Source: Octopus vulgaris | Lineage: Eukaryota | NCBI GenBank assembly: GCA_951406725.2 | Contig: OX597814.1 | Location: 203,546,001 to 203,610,000, forward strand | Reading direction: 5' to 3' | Length of the DNA stretch: 64,000 nt | Shown here: positions 16,910 to 53,773 of the stretch, piece after piece | How positions within the stretch are numbered: position 1 is the stretch's first letter | How the letters are laid out: every line of letters begins with the position of its first letter | Made by a program: the position numbers and the translations under genes | The notes under the pieces: generated by a model | Database searches by the model: none | Told to the model about the DNA's origin: nothing | What the model saw: only the letters and a program-made list of their open reading frames with translations

Positions 16910-17668
16910 CAGTGCTGAGTGACACCACTGTGTTTACTTTGCTAGTCATGAAATTTGCATTTTTGTGATCACGTGTATGCTGTGGTCTATGATTTTGTGA
17001 AATTTTTTGTTGAACTTGGGAAGTCTGCTACTGAGACATTGAGCATGCCTCAGCAAGCTTACAGCGATGACGCAATGGGTCATACACAATGTTTCAAATG
17101 ACACAGATACTTCAAAAGTGGAAGAACATCCCTGGAAGACGATGAGTGATCTGGAAGCCCTACCACAAGTGTCAACCCCAGAAAAGTGGAGAAAATTCAT
17201 CAGCTTGTGTATGAGGATTGTTTGAGGACAATCAATGATATTGCTGATGTTGTATGGGTCTGTGAAGCCAATTCTAGTGTCTGGATTCTTCATGACGACA
17301 ATGTAGCCTGTCACCAGGCTCTCGTCACTCATGAGTTTCTCACCAAAAACAACATGGTATTACTTTTGCACCTGCCCTATTCACCAGATTTAGCACCGGC
17401 AGACTTCCATCTCTTACCTAAGGTGAAAATGCAGCTTAAAGGTTGCCGTTTTAACACTGTTGTTGAGATGAAGAGTGAATCACAGAAGGTCCTTGACTCA
17501 CTTACAGAAAATGACTTCCAGGCTGGATTTGAAAAGTTGCAGGCAGCTGGGACTGGTGTATTGCTGTGCAAGGGGACTATTTCAAAGGAGGTGGTGTTAA
17601 AACTTAGGTAAATAAGATATTTTTTTATTAAACATATCTAGTCCAGGGACTTTTTGATATCATCTCAT
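16910..17668 (+). pseudogene. mariner relic inserted in the internal microsatellite of a family B SINE
   Basis: WILHDDNVACH and HLPYSPDLAPADF. SINE head at 16712-16870 and SINE tail at about 17700-17850. Confidence 0.85.
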
Positions 17669-28511: not shown

Positions 28512-31500
28512 ATCATCATCATCATCATCGTCGTTTAACGTCCGTTCTCCATGCTAGCATGGGTTGGACGGTTCGACCGGGGTTCTGGGAAGCCAGAAGG
28601 CTGCACCAGGCTCCAGTCTAAATTTGGCAATGTTTCTACAGCTGGATGCCCTTCCTAACGCCAACCACTCCGTGAGTGTAGTGGGTGCTTTTTACGTGCC
28701 ACCTGCACAGGTGCCAGGCGGGGCTGGCAACGGCCACGGTCAGATTGGTGTATTTTATGTGCCACCGGCACGGAAGCCAGTCGAGGCGGTGCTGGCATCG
28801 GCCACGAGTCGGATAGTGCTTTTTACGTACCACCAGACCAGGGATCCTGGCTGGTTCAATTCGATTTCGATTTCGCTTGCCCCAACATGTCTTCACAAGC
28901 AAAGGGGTTGGCAAGGGTGCCTGTCGTACGGTCGCATTGGAGTATTTTACATGCCACGGCCACGAGTCGGATAGTGCTTTTTACGTACCATCAGACCAGG
29001 GATCCTGGCTGGTTCAATTCGATTTCGATTTCGCTTGCCCCAACATGTCTTCACAAGCAAAGGGGGTTGGCATGGGTGCCTGTCGTACGGTCGCATTGGA
29101 GTATTTTACGTGCCACGGCCACGAGTTGGATAGTGCTTTTTACGTACCACCAGGCCAGGGATCCTGGCTGGTTCAATTCGGTTTCGATTTCGATTTCGCT
29201 TGCCCCAACATGTCTTCGCAAGCATGGGGGGTTGGCATGGGTGTCTGTCGTCAGATGAGGTTCTATATCGACTTCGCTTGCCTCAACCGGTCTTTGTGTC
29301 CAAGGGAGGAAAGGCATTCATAAGTGGGCTGGGCTCACTTGTCCTGCCTGGTCTTCTCACGTACAGAATATTTCCAAAGGTCTCGGTCTCTGGTCATTTC
29401 CTCAGTGAGGCCTAAAGTTCGAAGGTCGTGCTTCACCACCTCGTCCCAGGTTTTCCTGGGTCTACCTCTTCCACGGGTTCCCTCAACTGCTAGGGATTGG
29501 CACTTTCTCACACACCTATCTTCATCCATTCTCGCCACATGACCATACCAGCGCAATCGTCTCTCTTGCACACCACAACTGATGCTTCTTAGGTACAACA
29601 TTTCTCTCAAGGTGCTAACGCTCTGTCGAGTATGTACACTGACATTACACATCCATCGGAGCATACTGGCTTCATTCCTCACGAGCTTACGCATGTCCTC
29701 AGCAGTCACGGCCCATGTTTCGCTGCCATGTAGCATGGCTGTTCGTACACACGCATCATACAGTCTGCCTTTTACTCTGAGCGAGAGGCCTTTAGTCACC
29801 AGCAGAGGTAAGAGCTCCCTAAACTTTGCCCAGGCTATTCTTATTCTAGCAGTTACACTTTCAGCGCACCCACCCCCACTACTGACTTGGTCACCTAGAT
29901 AACAGAAGCTATCAACTACTTCTAGTTTTTCCCCCTGGAAAGTGACGGAAGTTGTTTTCTGCAGATTTTCGGAGGTTAATGCTCCCGAGCATCTGCCACA
30001 TACAAAAACTATCTTCCCAGTTAGCCTACCTTTGACATTGCTGCACCTCTTATGTGTCCATAGCTTACACTGGGTACATCTTATAGAGTTTCTACCTACA
30101 CCTTTTCTACAGATCGAGCAGGGCCATCTTCCTGAAGATATTTGTGGATTGTCTACCTTTCTACTTATTAGTACTTTGGTTTTAGCTAGGTTGACTCTAA
30201 GGCCCCTTGATTCTAAACCCTCCTTCCACACCTGGAACTTCTCCTCCAGTTCTGATAGTGACTCAGCAATAAGAGCAAGGTCGTCAGCGTAGAGGAGCTC
30301 CCAGGGACAGCCTGTCTTGAATTCCTCCGTAATTGCCTGGAGTACTATGATAAATAGGAGGGGGCTGAGTACTGAACCCTGGTGGACCCCAACCTCTACT
30401 TTGAATTCTTCTGTGTACATGTTGCCAACCCTAACCTTACTTACGGCATCTCTGTACATGGCTTGCACAGTCCTCACCAGCCATTCATCTATCCCTAGTT
30501 TCCTCATTGACCACCAGATAAGGGATCGGGGGACCCTATCAAAAGCTTTCTCCATGTCAACGAAAGCCAGGTACAGGGGCTTATCTTTGGCTAGGTATTT
30601 CTCCTGCAGCTGCCTTACCAGGAATATAGCATCAGTGGTACTTTTCCCTGGCACGAACCCAAACTGCATCTCATCTAAACTAACTCTCTCTCTAATTAGT
30701 TGGGCTATGACCCTCTCCGTAACCTTCATTACTTGATCCAACAGCTTGATACCTCTGTAATTATTTGTATTTGTATCTAGGGCATCACCTTTACCTTTGT
30801 AGCAGTTGACTAGTATGCTGCTGCACCAGTCATTGGGTATGACTCCTTCGTGTATCACCTGGTTGACTATACGGGTGACTAGGTTATAGCCGACACTGCC
30901 AGATATTTTGAGCATCTCTGCAGTAATTCCTGATGGGCCTGGGGCTTTCCCTGTCTTCATGCTTCTAATTGCCTTAGCTACCACGGAACTATCAACTCGG
31001 ATAGCTGGTCCCTCTGTAGGGTCAACATTCGGCAGACTCTCTTTATCCCATTCATTTTCCTCATTCAGTAACCTTTCATAGTGGCGTCTCCAAGCTTCTC
31101 TCTTTGCATCCTCATTTAGCGCAAGTGAACCATCCTCCATGCGAACACATTTCTCTCCTACCACATCACGATTCTCTCTCACACACTGTCTTGCAACACG
31201 AAATACCTCAAGTCTTTCATCCTCACGGCGCAGGACATTGGCAAATTTTCTCTTATCTGCTTCCCCTCTGGCTAGATAGACCTGTCTCCTAGCTTCCCTT
31301 CTGGCAGTCTGATACCCTTCCCTGCTACCACCGTTCTTCCAGGCCTTCCAAGCCTGTTTCTTTTGTCTAATAGCCCTGTCAACAATATTGTTCCACCACC
31401 ACGTTATTTTGGGTCTTAAGGGGACTTTGCACCAGCCACAGATCTGGTCAGCGGCTTTCAGCAGGTTGTCCCTCAGAAACGTCCAGTTGTCTTCTACCCC

Positions 31501-31728
31501 ATGTGTAGCTATACCCCCTTCCACCCCTTCAAGTAACATATCCACTTGTCCATTCGCAGGGGCTTTAAGCTTCCAGACCTTCTTCTCCATGTTGGTCGTT
31601 CAAGTAACATATCTCTAAATCTCTGTCCATTCGCAGGGGCTTTAAGCTTCCGACCCTTCTTTCCATGTTGGTCGTCTTCTAGTCGCCCTCTTAGTCCTGA
31701 TCCTAAAGTCACTAACTACCAGTCTATG
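28512..31728 (-). mobile_element. Young 5'-truncated RTE-clade LINE
   Basis: Long RT ORF, about 820-bp 3' UTR with three tandem units of about 158 bp (28801, 28958, 29117), and a (CAT)n tail. Confidence 0.93.
29335..31590 (-). CDS. RTE LINE ORF2 (reverse transcriptase with PHD-like insertion; endonuclease missing through 5' truncation)
   Basis: Motifs KAPGPSG, NYRGIKLL, QFGFVPGKST, FVDMEKAFD, GVHQGSVLSPLLF, LLYADDL, YLGD, RLRWYGHVARM and RGRGRPRKTW. The annotated start codon is not the native one. Confidence 0.9.
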   Translation of the reverse strand: MEKKVWKLKAPANGQVDMLLEGVEGGIATHGVEDNWTFLRDNLLKAADQICGWCKVPLRPKITWWWNNIVDRAIRQKKQAWKAWKNGGSREGYQTARREARRQVYLARGEADKRKFANVLRREDERLEVFRVARQCVRENRDVVGEKCVRMEDGSLALNEDAKREAWRRHYERLLNEENEWDKESLPNVDPTEGPAIRVDSSVVAKAIRSMKTGKAPGPSGITAEMLKISGSVGYNLVTRIVNQVIHEGVIPNDWCSSILVNCYKGKGDALDTNTNNYRGIKLLDQVMKVTERVIAQLIRERVSLDEMQFGFVPGKSTTDAIFLVRQLQEKYLAKDKPLYLAFVDMEKAFDRVPRSLIWWSMRKLGIDEWLVRTVQAMYRDAVSKVRVGNMYTEEFKVEVGVHQGSVLSPLLFIIVLQAITEEFKTGCPWELLYADDLALIAESLSELEEKFQVWKEGLESRGLRVNLAKTKVLISRKVDNPQISSGRWPCSICRKGVGRNSIRCTQCKLWTHKRCSNVKGRLTGKIVFVCGRCSGALTSENLQKTTSVTFQGEKLEVVDSFCYLGDQVSSGGGCAESVTARIRIAWAKFRELLPLLVTKGLSLRVKGRLYDACVRTAMLHGSETWAVTAEDMRKLVRNEASMLRWMCNVSVHTRQSVSTLREMLYLRSISCGVQERRLRWYGHVARMDEDRCVRKCQSLAVEGTRGRGRPRKTWDEVVKHDLRTLGLTEEMTRDRDLWKYSVREKTRQDK

Positions 31729-51988: not shown

Positions 51989-52916
51989 ACCTATGGTGCT
52001 TAAACACATACCTGTACATACACATATCTATCTATGACAGGCTTTTTTCAGTTTCCTTCTACCAAATCAACTCATAAGGTTTTGGCTGGCCCAAGGCAGT
52101 AGTGTAATGCAGTTGCCCATGGTACTATATGTTAGGACTGAACCCTAAACCTTGTAGTTCAGAAAACCAGCGCACTTCAATCAAAATCATCTGCAAGAAC
52201 AAAGCCTTTTGCACTAAACCACAGCTGTTCCTTTCAAATTCTTACCTTTAGAAAGCAGTGAAGCTGTGATTGGCCCATTGTAAATCTATAACCAATAATA
52301 CTCTTGATCTACAGATCACAAATTCCTACATAAATTGAAAAGAACAAAGCATGTCACTACTGAAGAAGACGGCAGTAACATGATAACTCACAAACGAGGA
52401 GTTATGCATTTACAAACAACATGACTCTATTTGTTTAATCTTTGAAAATCCTCCCCTGTTGTCAAACAGCCTCCTTCATGGCATCTTGGAAACATATGTA
52501 CATGTTGCACCAATGTTTTCATTTCCACTGAGAGTTTTAAAATAATGTAATATCTATCTCCATAGTCTATCTGCTTCTGAAACTTGGATGTGTTTCAAGA
52601 TTTTGTTTTTTAAAAAGAGAAAAGAAATTATTTCTTATTCTCTTTTATATTTTTGATTTGATTTTTATGTTATGAAATTTTATGATTTCTGACTAAAATA
52701 GAACCACATGCACAGCAATTGCTGCAACAATTATCATATGCAAAACTGCATGGGTGAATACATGTATATATGTGTATGTATATGTATCTATGTATCATCA
52801 TCATCATCATCATTTAACATCCATCTTCCATACTGGCATGAACTGGATGGTTCAACAGGGTCCAATGAGTTAGAGGACTGTATGATGTGAATATATATAT
52901 ATATAAATATATATAT

Positions 52917-53347
52917 GCCTGGGGCTAAAAGCATCAGTAACACCCCACCCCCAGTGGCTAGCCACATTCAGATGGCTAGTACACCTTACGTTGTCGAGCG
53001 GTTACTGTTTATATCTCGTTCAGAGATTTATTATTGCTTTCAGACAGTTTTTCTAAATCAGTGACAGTGGTTGCTGTGAAAAACGTTAAATATTATTTGC
53101 AAGGGGTCTCCTTCATCGAAAACCGGTGCTTACCATGCGTTGACGAGAGGCAATTACCTTGAAACTATAGTCCGTATGTAGTACTTAGGTTTTCGAGGGA
53201 GGATGACCTCCCTTTGCAAATAACACAAGGGCACTGAGATTGTGTCTAAAGTCCATCTGGTGACGTTGATCGCCTGGGGCTAAAAGCATCAGTAACACCC
53301 CACCCCCAGTGGCTAGCCACATTCAGATGGCTAGTACACCTTACGTT
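52917..53347 (+). mobile_element. Young retrozyme-like 1.2-mer: 355-nt unit with identical 76-nt direct terminal repeats and a central HHR
   Basis: Repeats at 52917-52992 and 53272-53347. (TA)n on both sides. Confidence 0.85.
53134..53178 (+). ncRNA. Type I hammerhead ribozyme, U3 variant, palindromic stem III
   Basis: CATGCG-TTGACGA-GAGG-CAATTA-CCTT-GAAA-CTATAG-TC-CGTATG. Predicted GUC cleavage after 53172. Confidence 0.75.
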
Positions 53348-53773
53348 ATATATATATATATATAAAAGTGAAAATGTCTATTAGAAGAGGATCAGAAAAA
53401 CTTTAAACCAAATTCCCATTTTTTTACTATTTTTGTTTCACACTTGTTTCAGTATGACTTGTTGACCACCACTAAAATTAATGAACTTTGCACATTCAAA
53501 CAAATTGATATACAGTTTTAATTTTATTGACTGCTATGAACACCTTCTGTTTTGAACATGTCAATTTATCAACATTGAAACATTTTAATTTGTCAACATT
53601 GAAACATTTTAGTTTGTAAACATTGAAACTTTTAAAGGTGTTTTTCTAATTTGAAACTTTTACCATTGATAAACAAAAAAATACTGTTGAAATTAGTTTG
53701 GTATATATGTAAATAAATGTATGTAACATTTACGAGTTTTTGAAATTTAGGTGCATTTTCAACAACACATTTT

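Follow-up and report, generated by a model that had tools for sequence, protein, structure and literature searches.

A young hammerhead retrozyme family in Octopus vulgaris with a fixed variant core and Penelope-like insertion traits

The window analyzed here, a 64,000-nt stretch of the Octopus vulgaris genome, contains a 431-base insertion (52917..53347, + strand) of a non-coding hammerhead retrozyme; it spans 1.21 of the 355-nt units and is one very young copy of a dispersed family of several hundred copies (family A). Its best explanation, to which we assign a probability of roughly 0.68, is a young 1.2-unit retrozyme copy that was likely written by a Penelope-like element (PLE) enzyme into AT-rich DNA from a predicted 355-nt RNA circle. 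The class is a known one, of which this element is a young member; its variant core is fixed, and its PLE footprints are unusually clear.

The insertion, delimited by repeat comparison, family alignment, and end mapping, is 5′-truncated at unit position 1 and ends at E1 (unit position 76), the main fixed 3′ end of the family. As the preliminary description had noted, its first and last 76 nt (52917..52992 and 53272..53347, both +) are 100% identical and lie 355 nt apart from start to start; the last base of the second copy is E1, the inferred main reverse-transcription start site. The (TA)n flanks described there are also present on both sides (52891..52916 and 53348..53364), the 5′ run being the target microsatellite, within which a target-site duplication is unreadable. 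The repeat as a feature of the element was not borne out: it is the overlap of a copy begun at E1 and stopped at unit position 1, with no LTR involved, because across the family 3′ ends occupy two fixed sites and 5′ ends are scattered. The “tail” segment, which runs from E1 to the other fixed end, E2 (about 117-124), is present here as an internal copy at 52993..53040 (+), placed by the end maps. The very young age that had been claimed holds, since the copy has no private substitutions and departs from the per-column family majority (10 rows dropped) only at two common subfamily sites. The longest ATG-started open reading frames encode 30 aa (sense) and 45 aa (antisense). With a single hammerhead, this copy is itself unable to release a monomer and would therefore be a dead end. 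Elsewhere in the window, a 754-aa open frame (29335-31599, − strand) resembles a LINE reverse transcriptase, presumably of the RTE type, and frames at 16946-17611 resemble what we take to be a mariner-type transposase remnant.

A type I hammerhead motif, identified by motif, Rfam alignment, and cross-family covariation, occupies 53134..53178 (+) at the tip of the rod, with the UUGACGA core reported earlier. It comprises stem I (CAUGCG/CGUAUG), the core, stem II (GAGG-CAAUUA-CCUU) followed by GAAA, and a palindromic stem-loop III, ACUAUAGU (53164-53171), followed by GUC; the cut is predicted after C 53172, at 256/257 in unit coordinates. U3 at 53140 gives U3.G8 in place of C3-G8; a G10.1.U11.1 pair and a CAAUUA loop 2 are also present. 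The Rfam model Hammerhead_1 aligns over all 45 positions with 17.1 bits (E 0.065, 101 nt scanned), below its gathering cut-off of 34 bits, and it was not reported in a scan of the 3.3 kb around the element. The long enclosing stem of the preliminary description was recovered as a rod at 53093..53223 (+; −57.4 kcal/mol, z −7.7), with 0 of 200 shuffles folding as well. The whole unit (44% GC) folds with z −4.5 when linear and z −5.7 as a circle, in which 66% of bases would be paired and the sense strand (−115.9 kcal/mol) would be more stable than the antisense strand (−99.9 kcal/mol). The active monomeric hammerhead fold sits 5.3 kcal/mol above the minimum in this predicted circle. Rod pair 205/275 is A-U in 65 aligned pieces and G-C in 50, and a G-U-versus-A-C bias among rod variants gave no clear signal.

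Further copies, whose absence would have counted against the preliminary description, proved numerous in the genome searched (2.8 Gb, 227 contigs). A DNA search returned at least 167 family A matches (40 of 3190 candidates scored), and the exact core pattern matched 384 times, against 5 for a reversed-pattern control, giving at least 384 hammerhead-bearing units. The first end map used 103 non-overlapping loci with 176 arms (20 of 123 loci having been dropped as overlaps or segmental duplicates), and the second sample used 42 further loci with 65 arms, picked by a motif outside the hammerhead and yielding 68 hammerheads after 5 of 73 motif matches were dropped. Four more loci were dropped for the counts of insertion type (99 loci), cut-site crossing, and unit uniformity, the last two of which omit homopolymer sites 26 and 31; three loci were dropped for the comparison between insertions. 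An A-to-I editing footprint was sought in family A, and A>G (28) and T>C (31) changes revealed no strand bias.

The suggestion that U3 might be native is upheld by 67 of the 68 hammerheads in the hammerhead-independent sample and by 127 of 129 aligned units; C3 appears in only 8 of the 384 core-pattern matches, one of them unrelated. Four sister families (B, C, D, and E) are about 65-80% identical to A, with 353-357-nt units, two ends as in A, and a C3 core, so U3 is a derived state in family A. They were seen at L272, L277, L176, and L296 (G000 C1, C5), and their shared core pattern has 783 matches. Family C is young (mostly 97-100% identity), forming arrays of 5-6 units nearly always in (TA)n. 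A further young family, F (L297, L312-L341), has a unit of about 363 nt, 96-98% identity, and two fixed ends, and its core is CCGAUGA (C4) in 38 of 41 motifs. Across the sister families, stems I and II covary and loop 3 is always palindromic (UAUA, UGCA, UCGA, or ACGU), the palindrome being kept through double changes, a pattern that fits the double-hammerhead cleavage described in PMC4209133. Among the 68 family A hammerheads, the frequent subfamily variants lie in loop 2, at position N7, or in stem I as G-U to A-U changes that keep pairing, and beyond U3 the core is intact in every subfamily; this weakly fits continued selection after U3 was fixed, the test being of low power. PMC3088659 records natural covariation of the U3-A8 type as well as a U4C viroid variant, and PMC7151607 cites a halophile variant in which U3 and G8 occur together with an insertion, so U3.G8 is rare but not unprecedented. 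Older hammerhead-like motifs unrelated to family A (CUGAUGA...GAAACACRUGUC) occur at L287, L290, L306, L309, and L310, and a broad pattern for them gave 1331 matches against 27 in the control.

The preliminary description had proposed a check for permuted endpoints among genomic copies; instead, 3′ ends proved fixed at two sites about 45 nt apart, and only 5′ ends scatter over the unit, in both samples. In the first map (103 loci), 147 of 176 arms end at unit positions 72-79 or 114-126: 86 at 72-79, including 62 exactly at 76 (E1), and 61 at 114-126 (E2). The second sample (42 loci) agrees, with 56 of 65 arms at the two sites (33 at E1 and 23 at E2). A pile of 5′ ends at positions 1-6 involves 21 arms, about 8 of them real stops and the others query-edge artefacts, in a search sample enriched for arms as long as those reaching these positions; a weak 5′-stop hot spot there is possible. 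By insertion type, the 99 loci include 36 inverted E1/E2 pairs, 3 E1/E1 or E2/E2 pairs, 33 single insertions at E1, and 9 at E2, and inverted E1/E2 pairs make up 16 of the 42 loci in the second sample. Non-microsatellite target duplications of at least 7 nt (mode, 13-14 nt) were found at 37 of 99 loci, compared with 22 of 300 shuffled flank pairs, mainly in inverted copies, and some are TA-rich. ATAT directly follows 34 of 56 E1 ends.

This anatomy resembles that of PLEs, and these PLE-type ends, which the preliminary description does not mention, are the most informative feature of the element. In vitro, a PLE protein was shown to cleave both strands of AT-rich DNA and to start reverse transcription at two internal sites that bound a “tail” (Frangieh et al., PMC11167929); partial tandems, inverted arms, and tails are described as PLE traits by Craig et al. 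(PMC8557442). Since two fixed ends with a tail, inverted arms, and AT-rich targets match this behavior, we infer by analogy that the retrozyme is very probably moved by a PLE enzyme. The two 3′ ends separated by a tail recur in both samples, and 5′ truncation, partial tandems, inverted arms, and AT-rich targets were all found; the reverse transcriptase (RT) plus GIY-YIG reading frame of an autonomous PLE is absent from the family A element.

Candidate enzyme sources are present in the genome. Intact young PLEs encode a 781-aa RT plus GIY-YIG frame, and this PLE and a second PLE family each have two ends in (TA)n, separated by about 38 nt and 30 nt, respectively. The former (L156:494-5467 and L154-L169) carries an upstream 479-aa frame with no Pfam match, and at its 3′ end lie a 38-nt tail and a motif resembling a hammerhead, the core of which is of the U3-A8 type; the second (L170:4990-5050) has a 3′ hammerhead with a CCGAAGA (C4) or CUGAAGA core and the palindrome AGUACU. 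A GIY-YIG search, with 150 of 6136 candidates scored, recovered several families with a CxxxxCxxC linker, which appear to be Neptune-type by the description in PMC8557442, plus one unrelated host-like nuclease. At L141:1360-1650, a GIY-YIG exon is followed by a GT splice donor, unlike PLE nucleases, and probably belongs to a host nuclease gene. With this number of candidates scored, no PLE in about 90 PLE-containing loci shares sequence with the unit, and no homologous pseudo-LTR was found. Several apparent associations were rejected: a family B copy neighboring the L170 PLE is a separate insertion and not part of it; hammerheads spaced 1.4-3.6 kb apart are secondary duplications or fragments without PLE frames; and two inverted family F copies separated by 7 kb reflect a segmental duplication. 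At L194:888-1737, (TA)n runs enclose a PLE RT fragment fused to a family B copy at the latter's 5′ end, both having the same orientation. This junction is possibly a template switch; the PLE was rejected as a partner, the 3′ end of its family being unrelated and the case single.

The insertions also bear on the form of the template. The predicted cut site is traversed by 102 of 135 arms (14 cross two sites and 5 cross three), and 2 arms end no more than 2 nt from it. Had the template been a linear monomer cut at the hammerhead, E1 arms could not exceed 175 nt; because most arms cross the site, copying must have used a circle closed by ligation or a multimer that had not been cleaved. At 47 subfamily-diagnostic sites in 63 tandem arms, 896 comparisons were uniform for the major variant, 196 uniform for the minor variant, and 18 discordant (1.6%), similar to the 1.8% background at other sites. 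Between insertions, 32% of such sites differ, and 22 long arms fall into 14 haplotype classes. Variants are thus repeatedly uniform across tandem units, the pattern expected from lineages that go through a one-unit stage, and together with copying across the cut site this favors a circular monomer as the probable main template, in line with the earlier proposal of cDNA from a 355-nt circle. Template jumping on a linear monomer would imitate a circle. Mosaic arrays also occur: in L414, a six-unit inverted family C insertion, unit two of each arm carries the same pair of variants, and two sites are mosaic in family A locus L005. Mosaic and uniform non-reference sites number 8 versus 48 in 14 A loci and 4 versus 18 in 18 C loci, so multimeric templates or arm-to-arm conversion are at times involved. 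Contigs from 4 sequencing runs guessed to be RNA (24 listed) cover the element without the flanks of the 52917..53347 locus, and one of 375 nt, from a run guessed to be RNA, spans the unit junction, a result that tandem DNA or RNA yields just as a circle does. A 48-nt family A piece (positions 209-256) at L031 and L032:1485-1532 ends exactly at the predicted cut; the locus is duplicated and represents one event.

These observations may be assembled as follows: (i) arrays with at least two hammerheads would be transcribed; (ii) stem III, being palindromic, would let two hammerheads pair and cut, at a rate that U3.G8 probably keeps low; (iii) the monomer would be ligated into a circle, perhaps by an RtcB-type ligase by analogy with PMC7229834; and (iv) a PLE protein would nick AT-rich DNA and, on one target strand or both, start cDNA at the internal site E1 or E2, rolling 0.3-3.5 times round the template before stopping. 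Several results weigh against this scheme. Hammerhead mutations had no effect on PLE insertion in vitro, where uncleaved RNA was the main substrate (PMC11167929), and only 1 of 9 Xenopus retrozyme dimers was cleaved in vitro (bioRxiv 2026.07.22.740005). The mosaic arrays L414 and L005, the sub-threshold Rfam score, the energetic cost of the active fold in the circle, and the fact that no sampled PLE shares sequence with the unit point the same way. The first of these results and the mosaic arrays are also what a PLE-driven process copying an uncleaved linear multimer from tandem source loci would predict, the U3 hammerhead being weak or dead and dispensable and unit uniformity stemming from young sources, conversion, or template jumping. 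The study in PMC11167929 also reports no RNA-seq ends at the cut site, and non-canonical cores have become established in two young families (U3 in A and C4 in F). However, 5′-truncating linear copying can neither lengthen arrays nor spread new variants across units, and 196 of 214 variant-bearing multi-unit sites are uniform, spread over the 14 haplotype classes; moreover, the core shows no further breakage in any subfamily and the palindrome has been maintained by double changes. We therefore regard a linear template as rather unlikely, and the circular monomer as the better account.

Two readings that dispense with an independent retrozyme fare worse. Were the unit the pseudo-LTR end of an autonomous PLE, with the copies as its 5′-truncated fragments, the PLE-type ends would be explained, and such fragments are common (PMC4209133). 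Upstream of the hammerhead, though, copies enter another unit (up to 3.5 units) and never a shared coding frame in the 103 plus 42 loci, and PLE protein matches near A copies are few and separate; this very improbable reading is largely refuted. The identical 76-nt terminal repeats of the single copy at 52917..53347 and the strong hairpin might instead suggest a mini-element of the LTR type, its LTRs 76 nt long, or a repeat arising at the DNA level (MITE or satellite) whose rod is a terminal-inverted-repeat relic. Yet the overlap length varies freely, 5′ ends scatter, duplications measure 13-14 nt, copies are dispersed singly, and the sense strand folds better and bears the covarying hammerhead; being refuted by the end maps of both samples, such an origin is the least credible of all.

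Assignment to the metazoan non-LTR retrozymes, as first proposed, is supported by unit size, a type I hammerhead, the lack of an LTR, duplications, and a self-paired fold. Family A has a non-coding unit within the 150-450 bp range, both tandem (arrays to 3.5 units) and dispersed; a type I hammerhead in each unit, given by a full-length, below-threshold Rfam alignment with covarying stems and a U3 core; target duplications longer than 4 bp; and a highly self-paired predicted circle (66%, z −5.7). The fixed LTRs, type III hammerheads, and 4-bp duplication of plant LTR retrozymes were not found. Comparable repeats measure about 350-390 bp in mussel and 330/350 bp in axolotl (Cervera and de la Pena 2020, PMC7229834), and the features given there, namely GC below 50%, a short palindromic helix III, tandem or dispersed copies, long target duplications, no ORF, and coexisting PLEs, are shared by family A. 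Unlike those elements, family A has a fixed U3.G8 core; in the part of PMC7229834 available, neither two fixed 3′ ends nor inverted two-arm insertions are described.

The dependence of retrozymes on PLEs that we propose for family A has also been argued by Li, Clavereau, and Pollet (bioRxiv 10.64898/2026.07.22.740005), for whom retrozymes are non-autonomous PLE derivatives. Their evidence, in the portion seen, is co-occurrence and pLTR homology in vertebrates, whereas ours is insertion anatomy, with no homologous pLTR; tails or inverted arms are mapped neither in that portion nor in the available part of PMC7229834. EN-bearing PLEs (Poseidon PAc, PMC11167929; Neptune and others, PMC8557442) resemble family A in their two internal starts with a tail, type I hammerhead, AT-rich or (TA)n targets, 5′ truncation, and tandem and inverted copies. 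They differ in that family A lacks an ORF, has a tail of about 45 nt compared with their 30-40, and has canonical-size stems I and II where PLE hammerheads are minimal. Non-autonomous Chlamys PLEs such as MRC1 are likewise non-coding head-to-tail insertions moved by PLE proteins, but most Chlamys PLEs have no canonical hammerhead, and their 3′ sequence is shared with that of their partners (PMC8557442). In the literature covered, family A is not described; U3.G8 or cephalopod retrozymes may be described elsewhere. An octopus repeat annotation (PMC13282606), in the passages covered, gave no match for ribozyme or retrozyme.

The retrozyme class, its circles, and its PLE link are already published. 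What family A adds is (i) a direct insertion anatomy (two fixed starts, inverted arms, and 13-14-nt duplications) tying retrozymes to the PLE mechanism, (ii) a genomic test favoring a rolling monomer template, and (iii) a non-canonical core that is fixed in a family of recent spread, alongside sisters with canonical cores. A more tentative reading, which we consider possible and on balance doubtful, is that retrozymes in this genome are RNA circles copied by PLE twin priming at two internal start sites and that the core-weakening changes U3 (A) and C4 (F) were independently fixed in young families as a brake, so that the hammerhead would cut only as a co-transcriptional dimer and be off in the finished circle. 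If true, family A and its canonical-core sisters would form a natural experiment bearing on what keeps animal retrozyme circles from linearizing themselves and on the need for hammerhead cleavage in PLE-type transposition. The insertion anatomy, the monomer-template test, and the variant core together bring two questions within reach of experiments on small RNAs. One is whether the PLE/retrozyme cycle includes hammerhead cleavage; the other, of interest for RNA-templated insertion tools, concerns the smallest RNA structure able to recruit a PLE enzyme.
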